A stretch of DNA of 64,000 nucleotides from assembly GCA_020632235.1 (NCBI GenBank), contig JACKFY010000002.1, positions 11,550 through 75,549 on the forward strand, read 5' to 3'. Of the stretch, positions 1 to 59,400 are shown one piece after another. Under the pieces are notes generated by a model. The model had not been told where the DNA came from. It saw nothing but the letters and a program-made list of their open reading frames with translations, and did no database searches. Source of the stretch: Pseudomonadales bacterium. Its GTDB lineage: Bacteria > Patescibacteriota > Microgenomatia > UBA1400 > PJMF01. The translations under genes and the position numbers were made by a program. The stretch's first letter is position 1, and each line of letters starts with the position of its first letter.

Positions 1-1515
1 TCTTTAAAGGGTGGCTGCGTCTAAGCCTACCTCCTAGGTGTCTTTGGATACGAACTTCCTTTACCACTAAATGTACACTTTGAGACCTTATCTGTAGGTC
101 TGGTTTGTTTTCCTTTTGCTCCTGGAACTTAGCTCCCAGGTGCTGAGTGCCGTGAAACAACAAAAAGTATTCGGAGTTTGACTAGATGCTCGAGATTGCT
201 CCCGAGACACCCGATCAGTGCTCTACCCCTTCTTGTCTTAACACGACCCTATACCTAAATATATTTCAGGGAGAACCAGCTATCTCCGGGTTCGATTGGC
301 ATATTACCCCTTACCACAACTCATCCGAGCCCCTTGCAGCGGACACCGGTGCGGACCTCCCTCTGACTTTCGTCAGAGCTCATCCTGGTCATGGTAAGCT
401 CACCCGGTTTCGGGTCATTCAATAACTACTCTCTCACCACAAGTGGTGAGAGACGCCCTATTCAGGCTCGCTTTCACTACGGCTTCCCCGCGAAACGGGT
501 TAACCTAAAGCAGTTATCAAATACTCGCAGGCTCATTCTTCAATAGGCACGAGATTACCCCTCACCTTGTTTTCTGGTTTATCCAGACGACAAGGTGAGG
601 GGCTCTCTCTGATTGTTAGCAGATAATTTCAGATTCTATTTCACGGGGTCTTCCACCCTTCTTTTCACCTTTCCCTCACGGTACTCGTTCACTATCGGTC
701 TTGTTTGGTATTTAGCCTTGGAGTGTGGTCACCCCAGCTTCGGAAGGGAGTTTGCCGTCTCCCAACTTACTCAGGAACACTGTATGGCATGTCTTATTTT
801 CGTATACACGACTGTCACGTTCTTTGGTTGCGTATTCCACCGCATTCTACTAAGAAGACATATCCACTATTCAGGTCCTACAACACCCCTCACTCTTTCC
901 TTCCAATTCTTTTCAAGAGTTCTGTCCATCCTTTTGCTCGTTTTTTCAACGCTTTTTCTCTGCGTTGAGCATATTTTCGTGCCTCGTATGCTTCATAGTA
1001 CACCAGGCACCAGTCATTCGTTCGACTGGTCCATTTACTACATCCAGAGTTGTGTTCTGTGTAGCGTCGTCGTAAGTCTGAGGTTTGTCCCACATAATAA
1101 CGATCAATGGCTGGGCTGTACAACACATACATATAAAACATAAAAACAATATTAAAACAAAAAGATGTCAAAAACCTTACATTGAAAAGAAAAAGTGAGG
1201 GGTTTGGGCTTTTCCCTGTTCGCTCGTCGCTTACTAAGGGAATCTCTTACGATTTCTATTCCTCTGGGTACTTAGATATTTCAGTTCCCCAGGTTACCTT
1301 CCCTCACCTCTTAGCCTCGAATTTCTTCAAGAACAAAAGGTGAGGGATCCCTTGCATCTCTACAAGGGGGGTTACCCCATTCGGACACCGCCGGATCAAA
1401 GCTTGATGACAGCTCCCCGACGACTTTCGCGGTCAATTTGCGTCCTTCTTCGGCCAAACAAGCCAAGGCATCCATTATCTGCGTTACTTCACATAAATAT
1501 TGCGAAATTGAGCTT
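1..1515 (-). rRNA. rrl: 23S ribosomal RNA, 5' ~1.06-kb portion; the gene continues past the window start. Interrupted by a ~290-nt insertion.
   Basis: Reverse complement matches conserved 23S blocks in order. The 5' end GGATGCCTTGGC..GAAGGACG lies near 1500. GGGGAACTGAAATATCTAAGTACCC is at ~1210-1290. GACCGATAGTGAACGAGTACCGTGAGGGAAAGGTGAAAAGAA is at ~630-700. GGAGATAGCTGGTTCTCC and GCAGCCACCCTTTAAAGA are at 1-20. Spacing between the ~250 and ~390 equivalents is ~290 nt longer than in E. coli. Confidence 0.9.
890..1171 (-). CDS. GIY-YIG nuclease superfamily protein (UPF0213/YhbQ-like), encoded inside the 23S rRNA insertion
   Basis: 93-aa ORF with YYVGQTSDLRRRYTEHNSG...KWTS...WCLVYYE...KRAKGW, the GIY-YIG core pattern. 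Same strand as the 23S gene. Occupies almost the whole inserted segment. Confidence 0.65.
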   Translation of the reverse strand: MTSFCFNIVFMFYMYVLYSPAIDRYYVGQTSDLRRRYTEHNSGCSKWTSRTNDWCLVYYEAYEARKYAQRREKALKKRAKGWTELLKRIGRKE

Positions 1516-5504: not shown

Positions 5505-6625
5505 CTTCAGAAACGAAACGCACCACTTTGGTAAAATCAGCAGATGAAAAGTGGACATAAAAAAGGAACACACTTGTCTCTAGAGGAGCGGGTGGAAATA
5601 TACAAATTAAAGGAACAAGGCTTCTCAATTCGTAGGATTGGAAGAAAAATAGGTCGCAACCATAGTGTGGTCAGTCGAGAACTGTCTCGAAACTCCAAGC
5701 CATTCAGCAATGAGGGATACAAACCAGTTAAAGCACACACACTATCCAAACAGAGGACAAAGATGCAGCGCCAACAGGCGCCACTCAAAAATCCAGCAGT
5801 ATTTTTGTATGTAAGAGAGAAACTAAGGATAAAGTGGACGCCAGAACAAATAGCGGGAAGATTACCCATTGATCATCCAGGTGAAAGTATCAGCTATGAA
5901 ACCATCTACCAATACATCTATGGTTTGGGAAGAAGAGATACGCTGTGGCACTACTTGGTTCGAGGTCACAAGAAACGAAAACCAAAGAAAACAGGTGCTG
6001 AGACTAAAAAAGCATCTAAAATAAAAGGAGTGGAGTCAATAGAACATCGCCCCACAAAGGCAAACAACCGCAAGCAAGCCGGGCACCGGGAAACAGATCT
6101 GATGGAATCTCCAAGAGGCATAGGTGCGAGCGTTTCAGCTCATATCGAGAGAAAAACAAGATTTATCAAACTTGAAAAGCTTGAGAATAAGAAAGCTGCA
6201 ACCAAGCAAAAAAGTATGCAAAAAACATTAAAAAAGATACAATCTGTGAGTAAGTCAAGAGATCCCATAATTAAGTCAATGACCTATGATAATGGCTCTG
6301 AGAATACGCAGCATCAAGAACTAGCTAAAAACATGCACAAAGGGTTATGTGTGTTATCCCTACCATTCTTGGGAAAAAAGGATCTGTTGAAAACATGATT
6401 GGAAGAGTGAGGAGATTTATTCCTAAAGGGACAGACCTCACCACCGTTAGTGAAGTGTATCTCCAGCAAGTTGAGAATTGGATTAACAACGCTCCGCTTA
6501 AATGTCTGAACCATCTAACACCAAATGAGGCAATGGCGAGAGAAGTTAACAAGTACAAGTTTAATCACTACAGAAAGGTCTTAGACCAAAGTGGTGCATT
6601 TCCAAATTGAATTCGGGTTTCAGAG
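5505..6625 (+). mobile_element. IS30-family insertion sequence (~1.1 kb) with imperfect terminal inverted repeats
   Basis: Left end CTTCAGAAACGAAACGCACCACTTTGG (5505-5531). Right end CCAAAGTGGTGCATTTCC...GGGTTTCAGAG (6586-6625). The reverse complement shares the 12-nt GCACCACTTTGG core and a CTYCWGAAAC outer segment. Encloses the IS30 transposase reading frames. Confidence 0.65.
5544..6610 (+). pseudogene. IS30-family transposase, frameshifted (ORFs 5544-6398 and 6347-6610)
   Basis: N-terminal HTH (LSLEERVEIYKLKEQGFSIRRIGRKIGRNHSVVSRELSRN). DDE region: GHRETDLM, TYDNGSEN, NMIGRVRRFIPKGTDL. The PY.SW-like segment (YVCYPYHSWEK) reads in a third frame around 6340-6380 next to an A6 run. At least one frameshift, probably two. 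Confidence 0.75.
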
Positions 6626-7162: not shown

Positions 7163-7278
7163 GAACAAGTATTAGCACGCACTTAATGACGAAACCCTTT
7201 TGCCCCGCCCTACTGGGTGTTCCCGCCTGAAACAGCTATGCTGAAAGTATTGCGGGTATTGTAGAGCGACAAAGAAGC

Positions 7279-7884
7279 CTAGCCAACAAACCCCGCCTTT
7301 TTCAAAACAACCTTGTTTTTCTTTTTTACCTCATCTGGTAGTTTGCCCTCTTCCTCAATGGTAATATCGAGTGTTTTTTTGCCCACCAGCGAGGCGTAAA
7401 ATGCTATTTGTGTGCCTACAAAATCTTTCACAAACGCCGGTTTTTCCAGGTGTGCCCACTCGCAACTGATTACGAAGCGCCCCAGGTGAAAAGTCTGCTC
7501 ACCACCACCCAGCGTGAGAGAGACGCCGTTACCAATATGCACCCCTTTGGGTCGCACCATGTGGCCTTTGATGTTATGTTTTAACTTTCGCGGATCATTA
7601 AACCCCAAAAACCCGGCATACGGCACTTCTGTTTTGTCTGAAAGCGCCTCAAGTTGCTGTTGAAATGTGGCGTCTACTTGATCCCATTCGTCAAGCTTAA
7701 ACGCTTTTTTTATCCAGTCATCCTGGCCACTACTCGCCAGTGAGATATCATCTCCATATAAAGACTTAAGGTGCTTCAAAACTACCTCGCCCCCCTCCAG
7801 CTCTACACCAGCGCCCAGCACGCCAAATCGGGTGCCTTCGTTAATCTGTACTCCTTCGTCGCCGCATGTAATCACAAATGACAT
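7279..7884 (-). CDS. hypothetical protein (201 aa)
   Basis: ORF with an N-terminal MSFVITCGDEG segment that could be an Ntn-type nucleophile, but no confident family assignment. Confidence 0.5.
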   Translation of the reverse strand: MSFVITCGDEGVQINEGTRFGVLGAGVELEGGEVVLKHLKSLYGDDISLASSGQDDWIKKAFKLDEWDQVDATFQQQLEALSDKTEVPYAGFLGFNDPRKLKHNIKGHMVRPKGVHIGNGVSLTLGGGEQTFHLGRFVISCEWAHLEKPAFVKDFVGTQIAFYASLVGKKTLDITIEEEGKLPDEVKKKNKVVLKKAGFVG

Positions 7885-12931: not shown

Positions 12932-14608
12932 ATGAACGTACAACAAACAAATACTAGTAAACCTCAACCTCCTTTGTACGGAGACGCAAGTGGTCCTACT
13001 GTCCAAACAGAAAAAGTGGTCAAAAACAGCAAAAAACCTCCTTCAAAGAAAAAAGTACTACAGCTTATTGTTGGATTTGTGTTCTTTATGCTCCTAGTAG
13101 GTGGCTCTTCAGTGGGGCTCTACTTGGCACAACAACAACAGGATGTCAGAAACCAAGCTGCAGCAGATTTGTGTGCCAATATCACCAATAATGTCATTGG
13201 CACTATCAGCAAACCAATCATAGAAAATACAGGCAGAGCTCTGGCAACTGTTCAAAACACCTCTACAGATTGTACCCACGAACTGTCTTTGATGGCCTTT
13301 GAAGTATATGATGACATGCAAGACCCCAACTGGCTCAACACTCAAGTTCTATTTGATAGTAGTACTGCAACTATTGCTCCAGGGGAAACGCTTATTTTAG
13401 ATGTTCGGCTTCCCTCTTGTAACTATCAGATTGACCTAGCAGAAGGAAAGCCGCTCGTACCACCCGATTACAGATCTTCATCCCTGCACTTGTTTGACTT
13501 TGCATTTGGCGGAGGTGCACTATGTGGCGCCCCATCTACTCCTACTCCATCGCCCCAAGTATCGTCTGCACCACTCACTTGTAACAGTGTGTGTCAGCAG
13601 GCAGACAAAGACCAATGTACAGCAAGCATGGGGCCAGAATACTCATGTGTCATGACTGACGGCTCTCGCACAGGACGATGCAGAAGAACCAGCAATCCAA
13701 GTAGTGAAAAATGTGAAGCGCCTACTATTGTCAGTCCCTCTCCCTCTTCTACCACCCCACAATGTAACTCCACCTGTACTCCAGAAAGTGCTAATGTTAA
13801 AGATACATGCGTGCTCAGTATGGGCTCAGCATATGAGTGTACTGTTATCACTAACGCAAATCTTGAAATAAAAGATGAGTATAGATGTAGATTGAAGACA
13901 AACCCAACTAGCACTACGTGTCAAGCTCCTGCCTCGAATGAACCGATTGTCTGCAACAGTGTGTGTGATCCTCTAGCAGATAAATGTGGCGAGGCTGTAG
14001 GAGAAGGACATGCGTGCATCAACACCGCTACCGGCACTAATCGTGCTCAGTATCGCTGTCGAAGAGAAACCAACCCAACCAGCAGCACTTGTTCTCTACC
14101 TACTAGTGTCTCTCCGAGTCCAAGCGTAAGCCCTTCGGTGAGTCCAAGTATCTCTCCTTCTCCTAGCCCTACACCTACCTATACCTGCAACAGTACCTGT
14201 ACGGGTGACAGTCAGTGTCACAGCGCTAATGCAAGCTACGTCTGCTACAAAGAAGGTAGCAACACTACGGGAGTCTGTAGAATGGGTAACAACCCAAGTA
14301 ACACAAGTTGTCAGGCAGCCCAAGGTACCTATGCGTGTAACTCTACTTGCTCTGCAGATGCACAGTGTCAAACAATAGGTAGTGGCTACATCTGTCATGA
14401 GGGTGCATGTAGGATGAGTGCCTATCCAACCCAAACCAATTGTCAGGCACCGGTCGTAGCCCAGCAGCCTGTCTATCAGACACCGACTCCTGCCCAACCA
14501 GTCCTTCCTGAAGAACTACCCCAGACTGGCGCCTTTGACTTCTCACTGGTAGCAAAGATTGGTGTGGCTACCCTTGCACTGGGTGCTGCGCTACTACTTC
14601 TACTGTAA
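12932..14608 (+). CDS. paralogous cell-surface protein with ~6 Cys-rich repeat modules and a C-terminal LPQTG sorting signal
   Basis: N-terminus KKKVLQLIVGFVFFMLLVGG...QDVRNQA mirrors the upstream gene. C-terminus LPEELPQTGAFDFSLVAKIGVATLALGAALLLLL. Confidence 0.75.
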   Translation: MNVQQTNTSKPQPPLYGDASGPTVQTEKVVKNSKKPPSKKKVLQLIVGFVFFMLLVGGSSVGLYLAQQQQDVRNQAAADLCANITNNVIGTISKPIIENTGRALATVQNTSTDCTHELSLMAFEVYDDMQDPNWLNTQVLFDSSTATIAPGETLILDVRLPSCNYQIDLAEGKPLVPPDYRSSSLHLFDFAFGGGALCGAPSTPTPSPQVSSAPLTCNSVCQQADKDQCTASMGPEYSCVMTDGSRTGRCRRTSNPSSEKCEAPTIVSPSPSSTTPQCNSTCTPESANVKDTCVLSMGSAYECTVITNANLEIKDEYRCRLKTNPTSTTCQAPASNEPIVCNSVCDPLADKCGEAVGEGHACINTATGTNRAQYRCRRETNPTSSTCSLPTSVSPSPSVSPSVSPSISPSPSPTPTYTCNSTCTGDSQCHSANASYVCYKEGSNTTGVCRMGNNPSNTSCQAAQGTYACNSTCSADAQCQTIGSGYICHEGACRMSAYPTQTNCQAPVVAQQPVYQTPTPAQPVLPEELPQTGAFDFSLVAKIGVATLALGAALLLLL

Positions 14609-14611
14609 AGA

Positions 14612-14770
14612 CTATCCCCTCCTTCACCATAGAATGGTGAAGGAGGGGTGTTTTAGCACTTCCTTTGTAAGGGAAGACATCCCGACTTTAGTCGCGATAG
14701 AAGGGTTTACCTCTGTTATTTCGATCCGCCGGCTGGCGGATACAAATCTGCATGGAACAGAGATCTCTCC
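14612..14770. repeat. composite hairpin-repeat element (family member)
   Basis: Modules shared with other copies: CACCATAGAATGGTG + GGGGTGTTTT; CCTTTGTAAGGG; GAAGGGTTTACC; reverse-complemented CCGCCAGCCGGCGGATCGAAA motif. Confidence 0.5.
14613..14650 (+). terminator. intrinsic terminator-like hairpin (CCCCTCCTTCACC-ATAGAA-TGGTGAAGGAGGGG, then TGTTTT); also the first module of a composite repeat element
   Basis: 13-bp GC-rich stem, followed by a U-rich tract, 5 nt after the stop of the preceding gene. Confidence 0.55.
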
Positions 14771-14824
14771 TGTCCACGTTATTCCAGTTGAAATGGCAAG
14801 AAAAAAGGACGGCAAAAGCACTAT

Positions 14825-14950
14825 GCGTCTACTAGGACTTACCGATGCTGCGATCGGCACAGGCTTCTCGCCCTACTAGCCGCGTGTGCGTCTACTAGGA
14901 CTTACCGATGCTGCGATCGGCACAGGCTTCTCGCCCTACTAGCCGCGTGT
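14825..14950. repeat. two tandem 63-bp direct repeats, each beginning with the last 15 nt of the adjacent tRNA (GCGTCTACTAGGACT) and containing the palindrome CCGATGCTGCGATCGG
   Basis: Exact duplication at 14825-14887 and 14888-14950. A third copy of the 15-nt start is the 3' end of tRNA-Ile itself (14951 onward). Confidence 0.85.
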
Positions 14951-15023
14951 GCGTCTACTAGGACTCGAACCTAGAACCCCCAAGGTATAAGCTTGGTGCT
15001 CTCACCAATTGAGCTATAGACGC
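14950..15023 (-). tRNA. tRNA-Ile, anticodon UAU (reads AUA)
   Basis: Reverse complement: GCGTCTA-TA-GCTC-AATTGGTGA-GAGC-A-CCAAG-CTTATAC-CTTGG-GGGTT-CTAGG-TTCGAGT-CCTAG-TAGACGC-A. Canonical cloverleaf with anticodon loop C-U-UAU-A-C. Confidence 0.75.
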
Positions 15024-23336: not shown

Positions 23337-23349
23337 ACACGTAGTCTAC

Positions 23350-23630
23350 CATCCCTCACCATAAAGTGATGGGCGAAGGGGTGTTTTCATCCCCTCTTTT
23401 CAAGAGGGGCAGGCTGAAAGCATGGGGTGTTTTAGCCCTCCCTTTCATAAGGGGAGACACATGGCGAAGCCAGGTAGAGGGGTTTTCCCTCGTCATTTCG
23501 ACTGGAACAAAGTGGAGTGGAGAAATCCCCAATGCAGACTTCTCGGATATGCTCGAAGTGACAGACTGAGTTGTGGCCGAAATGACAGATTGGCATGGAG
23601 ATCAAATGGTGAGGAGGGGTATTTTGTTTT
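23350..23630. repeat. composite hairpin-repeat element (family member)
   Basis: Modules: CACCATAAAGTGATGG + GGGGTGTTTT; CCCCTCTTTTCAAGAGGGGC + AGGCTGAAAGCATGGGGTGTTTT; CCTTTCATAAGGGG; CGTCATTTCGACTGG...GGAGAAATCCCC. Confidence 0.6.
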
Positions 23631-23680
23631 ATTCTTTTTAGCTACAATGTCGCATAAAAAATAAAAACCAGATTCAATAA

Positions 23681-33084: not shown

Positions 33085-33509
33085 TGCAGTACTTACTCGA
33101 TACCAATATCATTATCAAACACTTACGCCGACAGCAAAAGGTTGATCCAAGATGGTTAGAAAAAGAATGCGGTGTATCATTATTTACTTATGCTGAACTA
33201 CTATATGGCTGTTATAGATCCGCTAACCCTCTCCATGAACAAAGAATCCTTGATGAAACTCTCGAGTTGCTCGATATTTCTGTTGTCGATATAGGGCTTA
33301 AAGAAATTGAGTTGTACATACAAATCAAAGTTAATTTAGAAAAAAAAGGTCAAAAACCAGAAGACTTTGATCTCCTCATTGCTGCAACTGCGCTGGGTCA
33401 AGACCTCACGCTCATCACCAACAACGCCAAGCATTTCAAGAGGATTTCAGGCTTGAGAGTGCTTGCCACAGAGCCCGAGGCACTTCCTCTACCAGATCAC
33501 TCGCATTAA
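33078..33509 (+). CDS. vapC: PIN-domain toxin (VapC-like)
   Basis: Starts MVMQYLLDTNIII, has acidic residues at PIN positions, and overlaps the antitoxin stop by 7 nt. Confidence 0.75.
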   Translation: MVMQYLLDTNIIIKHLRRQQKVDPRWLEKECGVSLFTYAELLYGCYRSANPLHEQRILDETLELLDISVVDIGLKEIELYIQIKVNLEKKGQKPEDFDLLIAATALGQDLTLITNNAKHFKRISGLRVLATEPEALPLPDHSH

Positions 33510-34416
33510 AGTACGGGCCCTTCTGGGCGTACAAATTGTCCCCTGCTTTTTTATTGATGTATGAGCCTACCACCGCTGCCGTCTTGGGATGATGCTTGCA
33601 GTACAAGGCTGCGATCAGCCCAGCCAAAACATCACCTGTGCCACCTTTGGTCATGCCAGAGTTGCCACCAGTTATATAGACTGACCCGTCCATTTGAGCG
33701 ACATAGTCGATGACGCCCTTTATCACTACCGTAGCTCCCTGCAGGTCACCCGACATTCCTGTCGCAGCGCTCAAGTTTACAGGAAAAAATGTGTCAGAGG
33801 TCGAAGTAATATCATGACCAAAATCTTTCCACTCCCACGTTTCAGGAAGTTTGGTAAAAAGAGTACGCACCTCCCCCTCATGCGGTGTCACAATGCAGTT
33901 TTTATGTAGTAGCTCTGGGTTCACCATCTGAAGCGCCCCAGCATCAACCACCCACTTTTTGTCTGGGTACTTTTCAAGAAGGTAGTTGACGACAAACTCG
34001 GTGTCTTCATTCCACTTTTCTGTAGTTTTACTCCCTTTCGTAAGGGGATCCCCCGATGTTTCATCGGGGGAGGAATGTTTTGGGGGGTTTCTGGTCATCC
34101 CCGGCCCAATCAAGACGCAATCTGCCTCGTCAATATAGCTCTCGATGTCTTGTCTGGGCACCACAATACCGTTCCAAAATGCACCTTTTGCCTCTTCAAC
34201 CAGTCTATTATTGCTGGGCACTGATGCATAAAACACCATATCGACAAACTTGCTGGCAACATCAAGACTCCACTTGCTGGCCGCATGAAACAGCTCTGAC
34301 CCCCCAATGATCATCAGTTTGCCGTTTTGGCCTTTGTGTGAGTCTGGCCTAGGCAGTTTTATTCTCTTTAAGTAGCTCTGTATCTGTTTGTCCATAGTGT
34401 CCTTGTGGTTTAACAT
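33436..34416 (-). CDS. ADP-dependent NAD(P)H-hydrate dehydratase (YjeF C-terminal / Nnr-like carbohydrate-kinase fold)
   Basis: GKLMIIGGS, DCVLIGPGMTR, VVDAGAL, TPHEGE, GGNSGMTKGGTGDVLAGLIAAL. Confidence 0.75.
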   Translation of the reverse strand: MLNHKDTMDKQIQSYLKRIKLPRPDSHKGQNGKLMIIGGSELFHAASKWSLDVASKFVDMVFYASVPSNNRLVEEAKGAFWNGIVVPRQDIESYIDEADCVLIGPGMTRNPPKHSSPDETSGDPLTKGSKTTEKWNEDTEFVVNYLLEKYPDKKWVVDAGALQMVNPELLHKNCIVTPHEGEVRTLFTKLPETWEWKDFGHDITSTSDTFFPVNLSAATGMSGDLQGATVVIKGVIDYVAQMDGSVYITGGNSGMTKGGTGDVLAGLIAALYCKHHPKTAAVVGSYINKKAGDNLYAQKGPYFNASDLVEEVPRALWQALSSLKSS

Positions 34417-34424
34417 CCTTTCCC

Positions 34425-34515
34425 TTGTAAGGGAAAAACTCTGGCGGAGCCAGAGAAAAGGGTTTTCCCTCTGTCACTCTGCCGTGCCACGGTAGAGTCT
34501 TCTCACTCCCTGAAA
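34425..34515. repeat. composite hairpin-repeat element (family member)
   Basis: CCCTTGTAAGGG + AAAAACT-CTGGCGGAGCCAGAG-AAAAGGGTTTTCCCT + CTGTCACTCTGCCGTGCCACGG; parallels 45.7 kb and 51.5 kb copies. Confidence 0.55.
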
Positions 34516-39074: not shown

Positions 39075-39400
39075 TGAACCCCTTGCCTGCAGTTGTCACT
39101 CTGCCTTGCCCGAAATGCTATGCACAGTCGTTGCAGGCGGGGAGCGAAGCATGGCGCATGGACTCACTCCCTTTCATAAGGGGAGACATCAAGCGACAGC
39201 ATGATAGAAGGGTTTTTCTTTGTCATTTCGACTCCCGACACGTCGGGACTGGAGAAATCCCCAACACAGACTTCTCTCCGTCAGCTGGCGGATCAAAGTA
39301 GTAGATGGGTTTAGCTCTCCCCTTGCAAGAGACTTCATCAAGACTTGTAAACGCGGATACCTCCATTCCAGTCGGCATGACAAGTCTTGCTTCGTCACTC
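39075..39400. repeat. composite hairpin-repeat element (family member) in the divergent promoter region between the SpoIID-like gene and the pilin array
   Basis: GTCACTCTGCC; CCCTTTCATAAGGGGAG; GTCATTTCGACTCCCGACACGTCGGGACTGGAGAAATCCCC; CTTCTCTCCGTCAGCTGGCGGATCAAAG; AACGCGGATACC...GGCATGACAAG. Confidence 0.6.
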
Positions 39401-39458
39401 TCAACTAAAACAAACGAAGGGGTTTGCTCAATAGCTCCATCTGGAGTAAAATAACAGG

Positions 39459-40610
39459 GTGAAGAAAATACTACTACTGTGCTTTGCTGTATTGCAGATA
39501 GGCTCGTTTGTGATGCCGAGTCAAACCAAGGCGCAAGACATGTGTGGCGGCATTAGTGTTGAACCACCAATAGCATCACCACACCTAGATGGAGAGGTAC
39601 TCATCGTTAAAATAGCTGGATTTACAAATGGAGCATACAGAGAGTTTGCTATTACGGAAGACAGATTTGCCGCAATCACTCTTGAATCAGCAAGCGGAAC
39701 TGCTGTTGATGGTAAAATCACGCTGCAGTTTTCAGGCAACGGAGTAAAAAAACTTCTTTGGGCAGCGGATAGTAGAAAAATTTCTATGAACGGAGAAGGC
39801 TCTAATGACTGTGTTGTTCCAAATAGTTATTTCGAAATAGGTGAAAGTAGCACTAGTGGAAATCATTCTTGCGACCTCAACATTACCTATACAAACGATG
39901 AAAACGACACGTTCGGAAAATGGGGGTGCATAGACACCACAAGCGATTTTAGCATTAACGCTACTAACATTACAGACCCCCTGGGTGTGTTTTCGGGAAA
40001 TGAGGCAACATTACACTATGACAGTAACGCAGCTACCCTTGTTGATCTTGATGGTAACGGCAATTTTTTAAATCCTAAAATACTTCAATCAAATGAAACT
40101 AATTATGGCAATAACCATAGCGTGAGATTTGCTGTTGCAATAAGTGATTTAATTATTTACCACACGGCATGCGAAGAAACAGTCGGCACAATTGTCGAAT
40201 CATGCGCCAATGCCGTCACCCCCACCTCCACCACTCCCTTCCAACTTTGCTCCCAAATCCCCAATCCTGTCCAAAGGGCTGAATGCGAAACATGCGCTAC
40301 TACAGGAGGAGGTGACCCAGAAAACCCCGGTGGCGTCTGGACAGCAGTTGGCTGCATCAGCAAAGACCCTGCCTCTATCATCCAGTCACTCATCAAGGTA
40401 GGCCTGGGCATGTCTGGCGGCGTGGTGCTACTCACTTTCCTAGCTGGCGGCTTTATGCTCACTACTTCCCAGGGTAACCCTGAGGGCGTCAACAAGGCCA
40501 AAGAAATGATGACCGCCAGCGTGGTGGGCCTGGTATTCATGCTACTATCAATTAGTATCTTACAATTTATTGGCGTAACCGTACTACGAATACCAGGGTT
40601 TGGTACATGA
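39459..40610 (+). CDS. T4SS pilin-like protein (VirB2/TrbC-type C-terminal domain) with a ~280-aa N-terminal extracellular domain
   Basis: Signal peptide. C-terminus VGLGMSGGVVLLTFLAGGFMLTTSQGNPEGVNKAKEMMTASVVGLVFMLLSISILQFI: two hydrophobic helices flanking a GxxG/K-rich loop. Confidence 0.55.
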   Translation: MKKILLLCFAVLQIGSFVMPSQTKAQDMCGGISVEPPIASPHLDGEVLIVKIAGFTNGAYREFAITEDRFAAITLESASGTAVDGKITLQFSGNGVKKLLWAADSRKISMNGEGSNDCVVPNSYFEIGESSTSGNHSCDLNITYTNDENDTFGKWGCIDTTSDFSINATNITDPLGVFSGNEATLHYDSNAATLVDLDGNGNFLNPKILQSNETNYGNNHSVRFAVAISDLIIYHTACEETVGTIVESCANAVTPTSTTPFQLCSQIPNPVQRAECETCATTGGGDPENPGGVWTAVGCISKDPASIIQSLIKVGLGMSGGVVLLTFLAGGFMLTTSQGNPEGVNKAKEMMTASVVGLVFMLLSISILQFIGVTVLRIPGFGT

Positions 40611-41527: not shown

Positions 41528-41974
41528 ATGAAAAAATTACCACTCAGTTTTTCCAAAGCAATACTACTCTGTTTTATATTTCTGACAGCTTTACTAGCCC
41601 TCCCCCTCACCTCGCAGGTGAGGGGCCAAAGCTCTCTGGGCACCATCGATGTCCCTCCTGGCGTTGATGTCTACATCGCGCAATCTGGACTCTCGGATGA
41701 CGAGATCGCCATCATCTTTTTTATCAATCGTGGCATCTTGCTCATCACCGTTATCAGCGCCCTCTGGGCATCGCTGATGATCATCCTCGCCAGCTACACA
41801 CTACTCACCTCTCAGGGTGATACGGGCGCCTACACCAAAGTCAAGCAGTTATTTATCAACGCCGTCATTGGCCTACTACTCATACTGCTCACCTACACTA
41901 TTGCTGGCATCATCGGTCTACTTGTTTTTGGCGACCCAGGGTATATTTTAAATCCAGAATTGCCGCAGCCATGA
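41528..41974 (+). CDS. T4SS pilin-like protein (VirB2/TrbC family)
   Basis: Signal peptide. ITVISALWASLMIILASYTLLTSQGDTGAYTKVKQLFINAVIGLLLILLTYTIAGII. Confidence 0.55.
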   Translation: MKKLPLSFSKAILLCFIFLTALLALPLTSQVRGQSSLGTIDVPPGVDVYIAQSGLSDDEIAIIFFINRGILLITVISALWASLMIILASYTLLTSQGDTGAYTKVKQLFINAVIGLLLILLTYTIAGIIGLLVFGDPGYILNPELPQP

Positions 41975-44062: not shown

Positions 44063-44479
44063 ATGCTACAAAAAGCACGAAAATCTCTCAACACAGCACT
44101 GGTAACTGCTGGTGCACTCTTGGCAACAAGTATGCCAGCACTTGCACAAGATCCACAAGATCCTATTGGCACTGTTACAGTTCAGAGTACTGATGGTTAT
44201 TTTTCAAATTTTGGCGACCTCATAAGCGATCTTGTAGTTATTGCAATGGCAATTGCTGCATTATTAGTATTTGTTTATCTAATCTGGGGTGGCATTGAAT
44301 GGATCACTTCCGGTGGTGATAAAGGTAAAACTGAGTCTGCTCGCAACAAAATCACTGCAGCAATTATCGGTCTTATCATTCTTGCAGCTTCATATGCCTT
44401 GCTTAGAATTGCTTTAGAGTTTATTGGCGTAGATGGTGGCCTCCAGGGCATACTCAATAGAGCTGGTGGAAACAAATAA
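44063..44479 (+). CDS. T4SS pilin-like protein; candidate major pilin
   Basis: Signal peptide. VIAMAIAALLVFVYLIWGGIEWITSGGDKGKTESARNKITAAIIGLIILAASYALL. Followed by the strongest intrinsic terminator in the array. Confidence 0.6.
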   Translation: MLQKARKSLNTALVTAGALLATSMPALAQDPQDPIGTVTVQSTDGYFSNFGDLISDLVVIAMAIAALLVFVYLIWGGIEWITSGGDKGKTESARNKITAAIIGLIILAASYALLRIALEFIGVDGGLQGILNRAGGNK

Positions 44480-44500
44480 CTTATTGTAGATATACAGGAA

Positions 44501-44540
44501 ACCCCTCACTTTAATTTTTTAACCAAGGTGAGGGGTTTTT
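44501..44540 (+). terminator. Rho-independent terminator (AAACCCCTCAC ... GTGAGGGGTTTTT)
   Basis: 8-11-bp GC-rich stem followed by T5, 22 nt after the stop of the 44063 gene. Confidence 0.7.
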
Positions 44541-44657
44541 CGTTCCAGTTATGCTAAAATATGTGTGGTGTTACAGTACAACTACTTCAATGTATCCTCT
44601 ATTGATTTTTATAGGATATTTTGATATAATAAATCCGTTTACACATAAAATACTCTT

Positions 44658-45224: not shown

Positions 45225-45266
45225 CCTTTTACCTTCCTCAGCTCAAAATCATGCTATACTCCTGGT

Positions 45267-45674
45267 ATGAAACAACATCTGTTTGCTAAAAATCTTTTCA
45301 TCACACTCACGCTTGTATTGTGGAGTGTTTTTTTGCCCGTCCAGGCACATGCCCAGACCAGCGCCTGGGGTGGCACTTGCGTGGGTGGGCCAGACCGTAA
45401 CGTAGCGACTATTCAGGGTCTGGAGTGCTTAGTAGCCAATGTGTTTGTGGTGATTATCACCCTTATCGGCCTGGCTGGGTTTGTGATGTTTATTATTGCC
45501 TCGTTTCGCTGGATGACGGCAGGCAGCAACACCGAAGGCATCAAAAAGGCGCGTGCCACCATGACCTACGCGGTGGTGGGCATTGTGGTCTCGCTTTCTG
45601 CCTTTATAGTGCTCAATGTCCTGGCAGACTTTACTGGAGTTGAAGCCATCAAGGTGTTCCGTATTCCCAGCTGA
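45267..45674 (+). CDS. T4SS pilin-like protein
   Basis: Signal peptide. VFVVIITLIGLAGFVMFIIASFRWMTAGSNTEGIKKARATMTYAVVGIVVSLSAFIVLNVL. Confidence 0.55.
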   Translation: MKQHLFAKNLFITLTLVLWSVFLPVQAHAQTSAWGGTCVGGPDRNVATIQGLECLVANVFVVIITLIGLAGFVMFIIASFRWMTAGSNTEGIKKARATMTYAVVGIVVSLSAFIVLNVLADFTGVEAIKVFRIPS

Positions 45675-45679
45675 AGTTC

Positions 45680-46035
45680 TGGGTTTTAGCATTCCCCTCT
45701 TTTCAAGAGGGGCTAGCTGAAAGCCAGGGGTGTTTTAGTCCTTCCCCTTGTAAGGGGAAAACTCAAGTGATAACTTGAGAAAAGGGTTTAGCCCTCCGTT
45801 TCATAAGGGGACCCGCCTGCATCAGCTGTGCTGAAAGCACTGCGGGCAGGGACATCAAGCGAAGCGTGATAGAGGGGTTTAGCGCTTCTCCCGAACTGAG
45901 TCGGGACTTTGTCATTTCAACTCCCGACCTGTCGGGATTGGAGAAATCCCACCCAGATGTCCCTGCCCGCAATGTCTGCGACATAGTCGTAGCAGGCGGG
46001 TCTACTACGCTCGAAATGACATTCTAGCTTTCGGT
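45680..46035. repeat. composite hairpin-repeat element (largest family member), immediately 5' of the giant hydrolase gene
   Basis: CCCCTCTTTTCAAGAGGGGC + TAGCTGAAAGCCAGGGGTGTTTT; CCCCTTGTAAGGGG + AAAACT-CAAGTGATAACTTGAG-AAAAGGGTTTAGCCCT; CCGTTTCATAAGGGG; GTGCTGAAAGCAC; GTCATTTCAACTCCCGACCTGTCGGGATTGGAGAAATCCC. Confidence 0.6.
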
Positions 46036-51199: not shown

Positions 51200-51451
51200 A
51201 TGGATATACAAACACTTTTTTATGTAGTGGCCATCTCTTTCATGGTGCTGTTCATGATTGTGATGGGTGTTGTTGGTCTTCTCGCCTGGAGACTCAAGCA
51301 AGCACTAAGGAGCATACCTACCTTAAGCGGCGCAATAGCCACCGGCCTGGCAGCCGCCAAGAAAAAAGAGTTTTTAAGCACCGCTGGTTTTACCGCATTT
51401 ACTATTATTTTGGCAAAATTAAACGAGAAGTTTTCCAGCAAGAGGTCCTAA
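51200..51451 (+). CDS. small membrane protein (83 aa, 2 TM)
   Basis: ORF with two hydrophobic helices. Confidence 0.35.
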   Translation: MDIQTLFYVVAISFMVLFMIVMGVVGLLAWRLKQALRSIPTLSGAIATGLAAAKKKEFLSTAGFTAFTIILAKLNEKFSSKRS

Positions 51452-51602
51452 TCCCCTACCTTTGTCACTCTGCCGCGCCCACCTCCTTGTCTCTCTGAAC
51501 TTGTTTCAGAGACTACCCTCACGCCTGTCAACGCGGATGCTGAATCTCGTTCAGCATGACAGGCTAAAACGTGGAGAAGGGTTTACCCCTTCCCACTACC
51601 GT
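51452..51602. repeat. composite hairpin-repeat element (family member)
   Basis: TTGTCACTCTGCCGCGCCC; CTGTCAACGCGGATGCTGAATCTCGTTCAGCATGACAGG palindrome; GGGTTTACCCC. Confidence 0.5.
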
Positions 51603-51612
51603 ACTATCAGAT

Positions 51613-51867
51613 ATGAAAATGGTCACACTCAACACCAAAATTACCCCAAGTCAGCACCAGTGGCTGAAAGAGCAGGCGCAACAAAACAAGATGAGCCTTG
51701 CTGAAACACTCAGACAAATTGTAAAAAAAGCTCAAGAGGAACGAGCGGATGAGCTTATGCAACGAATACGAGACTGGCACGCCAACAACAATCTCACATT
51801 TGATGGTACCGAAGCAGTAGATATCATCCGCAAAGCAAGAGACACTCGTTATGGCCCTGATAGTTGA
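51613..51867 (+). CDS. ribbon-helix-helix antitoxin (CopG family)
   Basis: MKMVTLNTKITPSQHQWLKEQAQQNKMSLAETLRQIV. Confidence 0.6.
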   Translation: MKMVTLNTKITPSQHQWLKEQAQQNKMSLAETLRQIVKKAQEERADELMQRIRDWHANNNLTFDGTEAVDIIRKARDTRYGPDS

Positions 51868-52290
51868 TGCCTCCGTTGTATTGAAGTGGGTTCTCCCCGA
51901 ACCAGGAACAGAAAAAGCTATTACGCTTTTTGACCTTCACGCCAGTAAAAAAATCGAGCTATACGCACCAATCCTGCTATTATACGAGGTGACAAACACC
52001 ATCGCCCTAAAAAAAGACCTCAGCTCTAAGCAGGTAAAAGATGCGCTCGCCATAATATTAGATGAAAGAATTAACCTTGTGTCTATGGAGATATATATGC
52101 AAAAAATAGCCCAAGCTGTTCGCGGCTAGTCCATCTCTGCCTATGACGCCAGCTATGTGGTGCTGGCTCAGCAGTACGACTGTCCTCTCGTCACCGCCGA
52201 CACAAAGCTCATTTCGGCAGTGGGTAAACCCTTTGTCCAAACTCTTGAAGCGCTAGACATCCCCTCTTTTTCCCTCACCATAAAGTGGTG
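51851..52290 (+). pseudogene. PIN-domain toxin (VapC-like) interrupted by a frameshift/stop near 52125
   Basis: N-terminal frame MALIVDASVVLKW...LLLYEVTN ends at 52129. The C-terminal PIN segment SISAYDASYVVLAQQYDCPLVTADTKLIS continues in another frame. Confidence 0.65.
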
Positions 52291-52365
52291 AGGGGGGGGT
52301 TTCATATCCCCTCTTTCAAAGAGGGGCGGGCTAAAAGCCGGGGGTGTTTTTCCCCCCAGATACTA
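52270..52365. repeat. composite hairpin-repeat element (family member), immediately 5' of the VirB6-like gene
   Basis: CACCATAAAGTGGTGAGGGGGGGGTTTCAT + CCCCTCTTTCAAAGAGGGGC + GGGCTAAAAGCCGGGGGTGTTTT, near-identical to the 23.4-kb and 45.7-kb modules. Confidence 0.6.
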
Positions 52366-52380
52366 TATAATCGCCCCTGC

Positions 52381-54108
52381 ATGCGAAAGAAGCTACTTGC
52401 TCTACTAGCTTTTGTTGTGGTGGGTGTTATTTTTTCCCTCTCTCCTTCTGTAGCTGTAGCCCAAGATGATGCCGACAATAACTTTGGTTATGCTATTGCC
52501 CAAGAAGAAATCACTGCTTATCGCCAAGCTACTGAAAACTGCGATACTCCCTCTCTTGAGTGTCTGGTGCACAACACCACCCGCTTTACCGCAATAGAAA
52601 TCATCTACAATATTATAGGTAGAGAAGACTTTCTTGAAAATGACAGCATAGGATGCGACCCAGCAGACCCCGGGTGTCCCCCTCCTACATCACAAGCTCC
52701 CGCAGATGGCGGTTTTTTAGGTGATATTAACAGCTTTATTGGTAGTATGTACGCCAATCCAGCCGCAAATACCAGAACGTACGTCTCTGACGTGCTTGAC
52801 TCCGCCAACATCGCCCAGCCAGCCTACGCCCAAGGCATTGGCTTTGCATCACTTAACCCCATTCTTTCCATGTGGAAAAAGTTTCGAAACATTGCCTACC
52901 TTGCTTTTGTGGTGCTGTTCATCGTGATCGGCTTTATGATTATGTTTCGCACCAAAATCGGCGGGCAAAACGCGGTCACTACCCAGCAGGCTATTCCCAG
53001 CATTATTGTCAGTTTGCTCTTGGTCACGTTTTCATACGCCATTGCAGGCCTCCTCATAGACCTGATGTACCTATCTATGTTTATGATTGCCGGTATATTT
53101 AACGGCACTGGCTACAGGGGTGGCGACATCATCAGCTATGATATTTTCAACCTCGCAGGCGAAATGTTTAACGCTGGGAAGAACTCATTTGGTGTGGGGG
53201 GCAATATTGTAGAAACTGTGCTCACCGCTGCTAGCGGCAGTACTCTGCTTGGGACGATTGGCGGTATTTTTGGCGGCATAACCCTTGTGCTTGTGCTTGC
53301 CATAGCTATGCTCATCGCTACTTTTAAGCTATTTATAGAGCTACTCAAGTCATACGCTGCTATTGTGCTCAATGTAGTGGCGGCACCCATCATCCTAATG
53401 ACTGGCGCAATACCAGGCAAAAACCCCTTTATGGGGTGGTTTAAAGGCATGGTGGGCAACCTCGCTGCCTTTCCTACCGTCTTACTCATGCTGGTGATGT
53501 ACAAAGAGTTTGTAGAAAATGCGAGTGGGGCGGGAGGGTTTGTGCCACCGTTTACCCTGCAATCTGGCGCAAGCGGAGTAATAGGCTCTATCATGGGCTT
53601 GGCTATTATGCTGGCGTTGCCAGAGATTGTGAAAAAAGTGAAAGAAGTTCTGGGGGCAAAAGATGGATTTGGTGTTGATATTGCAAAAACTGCTGCAGGC
53701 AGAGCTGAAGACTACCTCCCAATGCCATTTATGGCTACTCGCGGTGTTGGTGGCAGTCTAAATGCCATGAGATTAGCTAGAAAAGACAACATGGGTCTAG
53801 CAGATACTTTGAGAGCTGGAAGAGATGGGTATACAAGAATTGATGGCGAAGGACAACTCATGGGTGGTTTACAAGGAAGTTCAAAAGGGTTGTTTGGAGG
53901 AGCAAAGGCTGGATATGACTTTGGCTATAATATAAGAAAAAATATTGACAGAGTAGCAGACGGAAGGCTTGTTGATGTCGAAAATCAAAACAACCTTTTG
54001 GCAAAAATTCAAGAACAAACTAAGCAAAAAGAGCCACCAAAAGGATTTGTTTCTGTTGGTGGAAAACTAAAAAGAGCATCGAGCTATAAACCACCAGAAT
54101 CGCATTAA
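52381..54108 (+). CDS. VirB6/TrbL-like polytopic membrane protein (T4SS channel component candidate)
   Basis: Signal peptide, ~170-aa extracytoplasmic region, six or more TM helices, hydrophilic C-terminal tail. The upstream ORF extension (from 52285) lies inside the repeat element. Confidence 0.5.
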   Translation: MRKKLLALLAFVVVGVIFSLSPSVAVAQDDADNNFGYAIAQEEITAYRQATENCDTPSLECLVHNTTRFTAIEIIYNIIGREDFLENDSIGCDPADPGCPPPTSQAPADGGFLGDINSFIGSMYANPAANTRTYVSDVLDSANIAQPAYAQGIGFASLNPILSMWKKFRNIAYLAFVVLFIVIGFMIMFRTKIGGQNAVTTQQAIPSIIVSLLLVTFSYAIAGLLIDLMYLSMFMIAGIFNGTGYRGGDIISYDIFNLAGEMFNAGKNSFGVGGNIVETVLTAASGSTLLGTIGGIFGGITLVLVLAIAMLIATFKLFIELLKSYAAIVLNVVAAPIILMTGAIPGKNPFMGWFKGMVGNLAAFPTVLLMLVMYKEFVENASGAGGFVPPFTLQSGASGVIGSIMGLAIMLALPEIVKKVKEVLGAKDGFGVDIAKTAAGRAEDYLPMPFMATRGVGGSLNAMRLARKDNMGLADTLRAGRDGYTRIDGEGQLMGGLQGSSKGLFGGAKAGYDFGYNIRKNIDRVADGRLVDVENQNNLLAKIQEQTKQKEPPKGFVSVGGKLKRASSYKPPESH

Positions 54109-56351: not shown

Positions 56352-56434
56352 ACCCTCAAATTATACCACTGTTACCCCTGCCAGACCATACTGCCCCCAC
56401 AAATCTGCGCTAGAGTTCGCTATAATCAAACAAA

Positions 56435-59400
56435 ATGTTTGACGCTCGTACTGACTCGCCAGAAACAACAGAGCAAACCGCTCAAGACAACCAGGGTGGG
56501 CAAAGCATACCCAGGGGGCACGTACTTGTCTCCGACCTCAAGCATCTCAAGACTGGCCTGGCAGGAAATGACTGGCAGCAGCTAGAGAAATTGCTCTTGT
56601 CTATCCTTGGCGCACTTGATGGTGAACACCACCTGCTGCATGACCAAAAAATAACCATTGCTCTTGAGGATGGAATGGGAGAACTGACCACAACCAACGA
56701 GCCGCACTCGGCTTTTGGGCGAGAAGAACAAAAAGTCTGGTTGTTTTTTACCGATGTTCTTAGTATTTCTCTTGACGCGCTCGAGCAGCTAGAGGTGCCT
56801 GGATACTCAGAGAGTGAGGTTGCAGCAAAGCTAAACAGCTTTTCAAACAAAACAGGGGCAGACTCTGGCGTTATAGATGAAGTAGAGCTGGTGGATAATC
56901 AAAACCTGCGCTTTGAGGTATTTGAGATTGTACAAGCTGCCTACGAGGCAGTTTTGGCCCATATCAATGCACAAACGAAACAAGAGCCGCCAGAAAAAGA
57001 AACAGATAAAAGCGAAACAACTTCTGATGATCCAGGGTTAAAAAAGCAACAAAGGGGTGATGCTGTAACTCTTTCTGGGGCAAAAGTACGAAGAAAAGAA
57101 ACAACGGAGGGAGGCGGTGAAACAGGCCAAACCCAACCAGCCCAGCAAACACTACAAGAAGAAAAGCTCTACGGCACGCGCACTGCTGCCCAGGCCTTCC
57201 AGTACCAAGCTGCCTGGCTGCAGGCTGCAGGCATGCATCAGATTGCTACCCAGCTAGGGATTGATATTGACAGCCTGGGGGCAGAACAACAAGCGCTACT
57301 GCGCACTGCGCTACAAAACGCCATAGGCCAGTATCTGAGCGATCCGCGCAACTTGCAAAACCTAAGCGACCTAAAAAATGCCGACATATACCGCCTAGAG
57401 GCATTACGAGAGATAACGAGACTGCTGAATGGACAAAAACTCCAGATTGTCTTGACTAGAGTAGATGAGCAAGGAGTAGAAGCACAAAGCGAGACAAGCG
57501 TTACCCTAGACCAACCCACCACCGTTGACGACACACAACTACTCTCCCAGGCAATACGCCAGCACTTCCCCAATGTAAGTAACCAACAAATTGTCACTAT
57601 TGAGCAAATGCTGCACACACTAGAGGTACTAAACGGCTCTAGCGTTACTATCACCCCCACTATTGTTATTGAGATCTTTGAACAAGCCACCGCCATTCGC
57701 CTCTCTCCAGACGACCCGCGCCTGCTCTCACTCGTTGCTTTTTTCAAGACCTTTGTGGTGATGCAGGTCAAGGAAGCTGCCCTGATCACAGAAAATAAAG
57801 ACACAGAAAGTGGTATTACTATTGCCGGTACTCCCAGAGAAAGCCTAGAGCAACACTACTCACCTCGCACTATCGTATTAGCAGAAACAAGCAAAGATGA
57901 GCCAGAAGTTCTCCCCGCAGAGCAAAGAGAAAATGTGGCTCGCCGGGCTGGCCGGCTGGGGGATCGCCAGTTTTTGAAAGTACAAAAAATGTATGGCCCC
58001 GTGTGGAACAGCTTTACTGCCGAGCAACAAGAAGCTATCGCCGCTTATATCCAAAGCAAAAACCCCCAGTTTACCCCCTACCGAGACCCCATCAGCAAAG
58101 AACTGCTCTTTCCCATCGAGTTTACCTGGCTCTCGGGCAGTGAGTTAAAGCGTGTTGTTGAGAAAAAAACGAGTGGTGGGGTTGTTATTGACTCGGCGCA
58201 GGCAAATAACTCTGTGGCAGAGTTTGAGCGACTGCGGATAGATCCGAAAATCCAAGAGCAACTTGAGGTAATCGAGCTAGAACAGCTCTACTCCCAGGCA
58301 TTGCTTGAACAACTCGATGAGCAGCAAAAGCAAATCTTATTAAACCAGCTGGTACAGGAACAGATCGCCAAGTACCAGGCTCAACTAGAGTACTTTGCGG
58401 CAGTAGAACAGTTGGAGCAGCAGATCTTCATTCAACAAAGACGTGCATATATAGAGCAACAACTAGCACTTCTAGAGGCTGGAGAAGCACAACTAGCAGA
58501 TTTTCAATATGCCCAGATGATGGGTGGGATTGTCTCCCAAGAACGACAACAAGCAGCTTGGGAAGCAGCAAAGGCGGGTGGTGAGCCTATTCCAGAAGGA
58601 ACTACTCCCAGTCGATTTTTCAAACGAGGGCAAACTGCTGGAAGTATAAGAAACACTACTGTCAATAAAGCAACAAAGCGCGCTCAAGATCTAAAAGAGT
58701 TAGCAAAGCTAGCTGCTGCTGCGGGCAGAGTAGCAAGTGGCGACATCAAGGCGCTTGTTGATGTTATTCGCAATAAGCAATTTAGAAAACTTGTGAAATA
58801 CCTCGGCTTAGGAGGCATCGCGGGAGGGGTTATTTCTTATATTCTGGGGGGACTAAAAGCGCTCGCAGGATTTGTGGGTGGTGGAGTTATTGGTGGTACT
58901 GTTGGTGGATTCATTGGCTTTTCAATTGGAGGTCCGCTTGGAATTATACCAGGCATTCTTGTCGGCTCAGCAATCGGAGGGACTATAGGCTCAGCAATTG
59001 GAGGAACTATGGGAGGGTGGCAGGGTGGGTTCACTTCCTCTATCGGCACCACAGAGGGTCTTTCAAATATCCAGGCTGCCACTGGCGGTGTCAGCAACAT
59101 CGTGACAGGAACAGGTGGACAAGCAGCTGGCGCAGGAGGATCTACTCTCACTACCTCAGGTGGAGGTGCGGGAGGATTTGGGACAGCTACAACTACCACA
59201 GCTGCCACTGGTGGTGGAGGCGTTATTGCAAGCGCAACGGGCGCGGCTGCAGCGGCCGCCAGTGCTCTGGGTATTGGCGTACTAGCCCCAGCCATGGGTA
59301 TTGCCATGATTGCTGGTATGTCGCTCTATAACCTTTGGATCATCCAACACTCATTTTTAGCACCCCTACCCCTGGGCACACCTCTCACCGCCCAGCCAAG

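Follow-up and report, generated by a model that had tools for sequence, protein, structure and literature searches.

A 64,000-nucleotide stretch of DNA from a candidate-phyla-radiation (CPR) bacterium, hereafter the window, carries 8-11 copies of hairpin-rich composite elements at no fewer than eight separate loci across 56 kb. With moderate confidence, we interpret them as interspersed palindromic DNA repeats of mosaic build that form a family specific to this lineage and are comparable in kind to REP/BIME or BOX. We prefer a repeat family to a conserved regulatory RNA because the elements are restricted to one lineage, shuffle their modules, occupy neutral locations, have copies in ORFs and fold equally well on both strands.

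The proteins of the window were found at 100% identity in two NCBI MAGs. One of these, GCA_020429115.1, is labelled Candidatus Woesebacteria, and the Pseudomonadales label of the other is evidently a mislabelling. The window holds a partial 23S rRNA gene, tRNA-Ala, tRNA-Ile(TAT), housekeeping genes (PGK, S1, Pth, an ATP-dependent ligase and transporters) and several toxin-antitoxin pairs. It also contains a T4SS-type locus comprising a TrwB-like ATPase, a PF18895 pilin array (39.4-45.7 kb), a 1236-aa SLT_3 protein, an M23 giant protein, PrgI and a TraC-like ORF. The 23S rRNA match (window 1-1498, minus strand) spreads model positions 1-1129 over 1498 nt. Some 370 nt would therefore be insertions, perhaps an intron or expansion of the kind common in CPR rRNA genes. 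Beside tRNA-Ile(TAT) (14949-15023, minus strand) we observed two exact 63-nt tandem repeats (14824-14949). Each opens with TGCGTCTACTAGGACT, which duplicates the 3' end of that neighbouring tRNA-Ile gene. These repeats look like duplicated att sites from integration into the tRNA 3' end; no obvious integrase gene was found near them.

Hairpin modules had been predicted at eight loci and were present at all of them (8/8), with recurrence far above chance. The motif GGGGTGTTTT occurred in five copies against 0.15 expected, all five on the plus strand, and the a-hairpin pattern CCYTTNNNNAAGGG matched three sites against 0.31 expected. The 45-nt core that the original prediction had described as recurring three times was recovered by repeat search and BLAST within the window at 23.39, 45.69 and 52.31 kb, with 86-91% identity. 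Module-to-module BLAST within the window gave 91% identity for the 46-nt core between 23390 and 45693 (E = 2e-11) and 87% for the core between 23389 and 52306 (E = 2e-6). The d/e module was 91% identical between 39218 and 45907 (E = 4e-10), and element E1 matched module X of element D at 86% over 35 nt. Exact and degenerate motif searches of the window found the modules confined to composite loci (Table 1). Further copies, beyond the eight loci, were identified in coding sequence at 34027-34095, 63420-63480 and 63729-63790. We also considered GGGGTGTTTT as an uptake signal sequence and rejected this, since five copies in 64 kb are too sparse and all are embedded in composites. The repeats yield spurious ORF calls, for example at 23422-23664 and 45763-45984; a six-frame query for other copies called as proteins returned no matches.

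Table 1 Composite elements, related features and modules in the 64-kb window.
Feature	Coordinates	Strand	Composition
E1	7190-7270	-	X-type hairpin (CCCGCCTG..GCTGAAAG..TGCGGG); reverse complement continues AAAAGGGTTTCGTCATT
A	14612-14800	+	H1 + TGTTTT (14616-14654), then a-b-c unit (14655-14712)
B (locus flagged originally)	23345-23640	+	Degenerate H1, GGGGTGTTTT, H2-H3 core, GGGGTGTTTT, a-b-c unit
E	34412-34512	+	a-b-c unit, then hairpin h (GTCACTCTGCCGTGCCACGGTAGAGT); TTGACA box downstream at 34529
C	39075-39420	+	X'-like hairpin, a-b-c unit, GTCATTTCGA, d (TCCCGACACGTCGGGA), e (GGAGAAATCCCC), f (TCCGTCAGCTGGCGGA), TGTAAACGCGGAT...CATGACAAG module
D	45676-46035	+	H2-H3 core, two a-b units (second with 40-nt X insert), hairpin
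G7	51452-51605	+	TTTGTCACTCTGCC, hairpin, CCTGTCAACGCGGAT..CATGACAGG, then GGAGAAGGGTTTACCCCTTCC
H8	52262-52355	+	Perfect H1 hairpin, H2-H3 core, GGGGTGTTTTT
Dehydratase copy	34027-34095	+	a-hairpin (CTCCCTTTCGTAAGGGGA), perfect 9-bp hairpin, then GGAATGTTTTGGGGGGTTTC
TraC-like ORF copy	63420-63480	+	In-frame module f + flanks (CCCAGATTCTCTCCGTCAGCTGACGGATCGACATGAC), disordered C-terminal part
Intrinsic terminator	44497-44545	+	Canonical CCCCTCAC...GTGAGGGGTTTTT after pilin gene 44063-44479
Module H1			CCCTCACCA-loop-TGGTGAGGG, then T-rich tail
H2-H3 core			CCCCTCTTTTCAAGAGGGG, small GCTGAAAGC hairpin, then GGGGTGTTTT
H2 hairpin			CCCCTCTTyMAAGAGGGG
a-b-c unit (recurrent, 53 nt)			Hairpin a (YCCCTT-loop-AAGGGR), ACA, variable hairpin b, AGARGGGTTT
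Hairpin c			AGARGGGTTT can pair with following CCCTC
Long-range stem			GTCATTTCGA...TCGAAATGAC around d (TCCCGAC..GTCGGGA), e (GGAGAAATCCC), f (TCCGYCNGCTGGCGGA)
Module X			40-nt palindrome; both orientations present, within element D
Module h			GTCACTCTGCC...
Further paired module			TGTCAACGCGGAT...CATGACAGG

Each locus is a different mosaic drawn from the module set H1, H2-H3, a, b, c, d, e, f, X and h. The hairpins are 15-33 nt long and of many sequence types, with loops of 3-5 nt. Module boundaries coincide with the G-run/T-run motifs GGGGTGTTTT and GGGTTT. Every hairpin had been said to be followed by one of these motifs; this proved incorrect, and the motifs are module-module junctions. 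Some composites enclose inner hairpins within long-range stems: GTTATTTCGA...TTGAAATGGC (14715-14793) surrounds hairpin f (TCCGCCGGCTGGCGGA) in element A, GTCATTTCGA...CCGAAATGAC lies around module e in the 3' part of element B and is followed by ATGGTGAGGAGGGG and a T-rich tail, and GTCATTTCAA...TCGAAATGAC surrounds d, e and an inverted X' in the 3' part of element D.

Judged from their sequences, paralogous loci differ by whole modules and appear to behave like filled and empty sites. Element A reads H1-GGGGTGTTTT-AGC(a...), with a single GGGGTGTTTT, whereas at the same junction element B reads H1-GGGGTGTTTT-(46-nt H2-H3 core ending GGGGTGTTTT)-AGC(a...). The apparent duplication of GGGGTGTTTT flanking the core in B could be each unit's own tail. 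Likewise, the second a-b unit of D has the 40-nt X between a and b, whereas element C has no X there. The composites may thus have grown by stepwise insertion or duplication of modules at G-run/T-run junctions. Matches between modules of different loci were all in direct orientation by BLAST, the sole inverted pair being X/X' inside element D. Orientation is not uniform across the family, as the 7190-7270 copy reads best on the minus strand, giving approximately 9-10 plus to 1 minus.

The claim that the elements are not CRISPR was borne out by repeat search and Rfam scans, which revealed no array of uniform direct repeats with unique, similarly long spacers between them. A broader proposal, in which the elements would be arrays of guide RNAs for a TIGR-Tas-like or CRISPR-like system, has almost no probability in our assessment. 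TIGR stem-loop arrays are likewise palindromic, poorly conserved in sequence and found in CPR genomes, but they lie adjacent to a Nop-domain Tas gene and are built from regular units that contain two 8-12-nt spacers bordered by box C/D motifs (PMC12045711). Our search of the window ORFs revealed neither a Nop-domain (Tas) nor a Cas protein. The units are irregular rather than 36-nt repeats, their loops leave no space for two such spacers with box C/D, and the copies are scattered over 56 kb instead of forming an array beside an effector gene. The TIGR-Tas reading is effectively refuted by the lack of a Nop domain in the window and by the irregular, scattered units.

We analyzed the predicted folding of the elements against shuffled sequences. 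Element D (z = -9.2; -172.6 kcal/mol) and element A (z = -5.7) folded far better than their shuffles, whereas B (z = -1.8) and C (z = -2.6) were only marginally better. Folding energies of the plus and minus strands were about equal, with no strand preference, indicating that the stems are essentially Watson-Crick palindromes. Across six paralogous a-b units, 88% of cells in hairpin b were paired compared with 66% in shuffles (0/500 reached this value), and five of its seven pairs had changed on both sides; slid controls reached 40% at most. Since pairing was kept through double substitutions, hairpin formation itself is conserved, either as RNA or as single-stranded DNA. A covariance model of the a-b unit (R1), which the original prediction had suggested building from the copies, recovered copies outside its training set. 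One was the copy in the dehydratase gene (E = 1e-4), another came from a Komeilibacteria MAG (E = 6e-4), and the third was E1 at 7.2 kb (7191-7251, minus strand, E = 0.04).

These results bear on whether the copies are plus-strand structured cis-regulatory or small RNAs that control the T4SS/pilin-locus and neighbouring genes, for example via a hairpin-binding protein. Selection on RNA is also compatible with the compensatory changes in hairpin b and with the G-T wobbles found in A's long stem; as G-U pairs, these wobbles favour the plus strand. The strong structure predicted for D and A and the plus-strand bias of the copies agree with an RNA function, as does a weak d/f-like arrangement in the pilin locus of one relative (L006, E = 0.06). 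In contrast, the minus strand folds as stably as the plus strand, B and C barely beat their shuffles, and the mosaic content differs from locus to locus with no single conserved architecture. Rfam at the gathering threshold over the whole window passed only the rRNA and two tRNAs, and at permissive E-values the best sub-threshold match over elements B, C and D had E >= 1.3; the related copy in contig L013, described below, also gave nothing. C, D and H8 precede T4SS-locus genes, in line with the predicted association, but the family spans 7-63 kb and also lies in coding sequence and beside unrelated housekeeping genes. Most copies follow stop codons or stand upstream of the probable -10 boxes of leaderless genes, element B lies between minus-strand genes, and the copy in the dehydratase gene is antisense to that gene. 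Together with the short, module-free syntenic spacers of relatives and the probable promoters downstream of C, E, G7 and H8 (see below), these observations make regulatory RNAs a distinctly unlikely explanation in our view.

We then compared the positions of the elements with those of neighbouring genes. Elements A, D, G7 and H8 open only a few nucleotides away from a stop codon on the plus strand, with G7 lying between the stop codon of 51200-51451 and the start of the next gene, and E1 is directly 3' of the minus-strand gene 7279-7884. We scored intrinsic terminators as a GC-rich stem and a T-tract with a same-strand gene upstream. The H1 hairpins of A (14616-14648 + TGTTTT) and H8 (52267-52299) scored as such, as did 44497-44545, and from their sequences H1-type hairpins look like ordinary intrinsic terminators. 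This supports the earlier claim that one element doubles as a terminator after an LPXTG gene: the gene is 12932-14608, which encodes a C-terminal LPQTG and a hydrophobic tail, and the terminator-like hairpin begins 8 nt past its stop with a 15 bp stem followed by TGTTTT. The terminator at 44497-44545 shares its arm sequence with module H1 and gave a weak R1 match. A perfect 10-bp hairpin, CCCCTCACC-TCGCA-GGTGAGGGG, whose arms are identical to those of H1 and of the 44.5-kb terminator, was also observed at 41603-41625, inside the pilin gene 41528-41974, where it codes for PLTSQVRG near the end of the signal peptide. This hairpin could be a chance occurrence or a further in-gene copy.

The sites just past stop codons, the terminator-like scores of H1 followed by TGTTTT or TTT, and the H1 arms in the bona fide terminator at 44497-44545 all suit a model in which the composites are in-place arrays of intrinsic terminators or RNA-stabilising 3' hairpins. 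Such arrays would arise without transposition, as G-run/T-run tails slip and duplicate locally, and would insulate packed transcription units, which would be useful because genes here seem leaderless and promoters abut the elements. However, most other modules did not score as intrinsic terminators, and the internal hairpins a, b, d, e and f mostly have no T-tract. Elements B, C and E have no same-strand gene upstream. B lies between two minus-strand genes, encoding a DUF192 protein and a MurG-like glycosyltransferase, and the MurG-like gene already has a separate terminator of its own. Moreover, near-identical modules occur 6-30 kb apart and in two ORFs, which local slippage alone cannot produce. 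We therefore consider terminator arrays unlikely as an account of the family, and within a repeat family some copies, namely H1 hairpins with T-tracts, appear to have been co-opted as intrinsic terminators.

A sigma-70 consensus scan of the elements found no promoter inside them. For C, E, G7 and H8, a probable promoter follows the element, as judged from a TATAAT-like box 6-9 nt before the starts. Element C, for example, ends before a probable -10 box TAAAAT (39447-39452), 6 nt 5' of the GTG start at 39459, and H8 is followed by TATATAAT and an ATG (~52390). Such boxes stand 6-9 nt before many start codons in the window, with no Shine-Dalgarno sequence (e.g., 39447-39461, 45250-45269, 52375-52392 and 56415-56437). 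This pattern, which recurs in three relatives (L006-L008), suggests widespread leaderless mRNAs in these organisms. Under a leaderless reading, C, E, G7 and H8 are upstream of the next promoter and not in a 5' UTR. H8 overlaps the 3' end of a PIN (VapC-like) gene (51851-52288) that appears frameshifted. The ORF of this gene stops at 52129, but a second frame goes on to encode the C-terminus expected of VapC (AYDASYVVLAQQYDCPLVTADTKLISAV...) and reaches a TGA inside the H1 hairpin at ~52286.

Element D differs in its transcriptional setting. It occupies the entire spacer from the last pilin gene to the 1236-aa SLT_3 (giant hydrolase) gene and has no internal promoter-like site. Alone among the elements, it must therefore be transcribed, as part of the region between two cistrons. 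The equivalent spacer in three relatives is 80-180 nt long and ends with a TATAAT box. According to the folding model, D probably attenuates read-through from pilin to giant hydrolase, and it would do so as a very stable intercistronic structure that modulates this step.

Copies inside coding sequence were examined at the protein level. The copy at 34027-34095 is antisense in the NAD(P)HX dehydratase gene 33436-34416 (minus strand). Its a-hairpin is identical to module a at 17 of 18 positions, and its 3' piece is GTTTTGGGGGGTTTC. The copy is in frame and codes for 22 residues (TRNPPKHSSPDETSGDPLTKGS) in a hypervariable loop immediately after the conserved GPGM motif. This loop has approximately 6 residues in solved (PDB) homologues and none in the homologues P0140 and P0150, and ranges from none to approximately 70 residues among CPR homologues, in which loops of 20-70 aa share a terminal (D/E)W..T. 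Because relatives are also hypervariable at this position, the copy does not qualify as a clean and unique insertion, although the loop accepts repeat DNA. In the CPR homologue P0145, a 7-nt tandem repeat, (AGAATCG)n, is translated within the same loop as REERIENRESRIENQ, indicating that this dehydratase loop takes up different repeat DNA across CPR lineages. The TraC-like copy is 96% identical to 39272-39294 over 23 nt (BLAST, E = 9e-5), and a second in-frame copy in the same ORF (63729-63790, 63.73 kb) is the product of a 309-nt tandem duplication. Together with the positions past stop codons and upstream of promoters, these insertion-tolerant loops would be places where a composite can settle with little harm.

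Subsequently, we searched for the modules in other organisms. The nearest relatives of the flanking proteins share 47-51% protein identity and the same gene order. At the syntenic T4SS loci of these relatives (L006-L008) the modules were absent and the spacers were short and AT-rich, with the exception of the weak arrangement in L006 noted above. Strain variants 99.9% identical to the window showed no indels or presence-absence polymorphism in the elements. A riboswitch-like leader (GGAAGTCTGGTGA...CCAGCACTGTGCCGCAACGGT...AGTCCGATCTTC) is conserved among the relatives at L006 22725-23074, L007 21900-22159 and L008 22338-22677, upstream of the gene following the M23-protein homologue. This leader looks cobalamin-type, and its variable loops carry species-specific hairpin inserts; the equivalent place in the window is merely a 96-nt spacer.

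A pattern scan with the H2 21-mer gave one match in 185,579 species genomes and four in JGI metagenomes, approximately the number expected by chance, and two viral-contig scans gave 0 matches. Two of the matching loci (L005 and L013) nonetheless have matching flanking grammar. The Komeilibacteria MAG contains arrays of CCCCTC...GAGGGG hairpins followed by AGAGGGGTT. In L013 (JGI contig Ga0307967_1000075, 276-450), a whole unit of GGGGTTTT, H2 (CCCCTCTTnnnAAGAGGGG), a variable hairpin and GGGGTGTT is present in two inverted copies. The doublet is downstream of a TonB-dependent receptor gene on a Bacteroidota-like contig (SusC/TonB receptor, imelysin, DUF4856). By its sequence, this doublet is REPIN-like and follows the grammar of the window's H2-H3 core, in an unrelated phylum. 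By analogy, this patchy spread of the H2 grammar (Komeilibacteria, Bacteroidota-like) may be regarded as typical of REP-like elements.

A bolder extension of these observations is that units of H2, a variable hairpin and GGGGTGTT, and of the a-hairpin and AGAGGGGTT, might belong to a class of single-strand-DNA mobile hairpins that is widespread, spreads horizontally and inserts beside a G-run/T-run target in one orientation relative to replication. We give this idea a low probability. If true, it would explain the ~9:1 plus-strand bias regardless of gene direction, a bias that is itself suggestive of single-strand, replication-coupled insertion, and it would represent the first REP/RAYT-like system in CPR bacteria, one that also reshapes protein loops.

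Finally, we compared the family with known repeat systems. REP/BIME in Enterobacteria and REPINs in Pseudomonas are mobilised by RAYT (TnpA-REP) Y1 transposases, whose genes often have REPs on their flanks. REP sequences are imperfect palindromes of 30-40 nt with a conserved 5' tetranucleotide (GTAG in E. coli), occur as inverted REP/iREP pairs with linkers between them and number tens to hundreds per genome. The window elements resemble REP/BIME/REPIN in that short imperfect palindromes and linkers form mosaic intergenic composites at gene ends or within operons, can terminate or stabilise transcripts and have species-specific sequence; the related copy in L013 is an inverted doublet, as in REPINs. 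REP hairpin stems also stay complementary despite base changes (PMC3333891). Unlike REP, the window hairpins have no conserved 5' tetranucleotide (no GTAG), their conserved flank being a 3' G-run/T-run; the copies lie nearly all in one orientation, without alternating REP/iREP pairs, and comprise many hairpin types compared with two or three in REP. No transposase, RAYT or other HUH gene was seen among the ORFs of the 64-kb window by Pfam. Mobility would depend on an enzyme encoded elsewhere in the genome, possibly of the single-strand-DNA (HUH/Y1) type or another transposase.

Regarding MITEs, GTCATTTCGA...TCGAAATGAC and TGTCA...TGACA bound some modules, and the interiors are not homologous and have no flanking duplication. 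No clear terminal inverted repeats with target-site duplications were seen for the composites. The sole IS-like ORF in the window (5544-6398, HTH_38 only) has ends that do not match. Of the three options first proposed, a lineage-specific REP-like family fits best; neither strict REP nor strict MITE character was demonstrated, and the regulatory RNA option was weakened.

BOX elements of Streptococcus pneumoniae (known with RUP and SPRITE) provide another parallel, being modular, with a variable number of internal modules and extensive predicted RNA structure. BOX (boxA-boxB(n)-boxC) is intergenic, sometimes co-transcribed so as to alter expression, missing in related species, and regarded as parasitic, turning over slowly (PMC3049150). 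The likeness is in architecture only, as the window elements have no sequence or Rfam relationship to boxA, boxB or boxC, occur in another host phylum and lack fixed ends, whereas BOX has fixed terminal modules A and C. The in-gene copies in the dehydratase and TraC-like ORF recall Rickettsia palindromic elements (RPE), in-frame palindromic repeats that add peptide in a tolerant loop. However, RPE are single units of 100-150 bp, whereas the window elements are mostly intergenic mosaics of 15-45-nt modules, and the dehydratase copy sits in a loop that varies in relatives too. H1, a GC-rich stem and T-tract right after a stop codon, resembles intrinsic terminators, but most modules lack a T-tract and composites also occur where the strand needs no terminating. 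Roles as terminators or in transcript structure are the usual fate of REP, BIME and BOX elements (PMC3333891, PMC3049150).

We found no description of interspersed palindromic repeat families in CPR/Patescibacteria in the literature. The window family is the first set of such repeats noted in this group, of a kind already known from REP/BIME and BOX, and does not represent a new biological principle. In practical terms, repeats of this kind fragment MAG assemblies, give spurious ORF calls and could serve as strain markers. CPR/Patescibacteria genomes are small and compact. Mosaic repeats that fill spacers of 100-365 nt would indicate that even such reduced genomes carry proliferating non-coding DNA, which here supplies terminators, sits between the pilin and giant hydrolase genes of a T4SS locus and enters protein loops.
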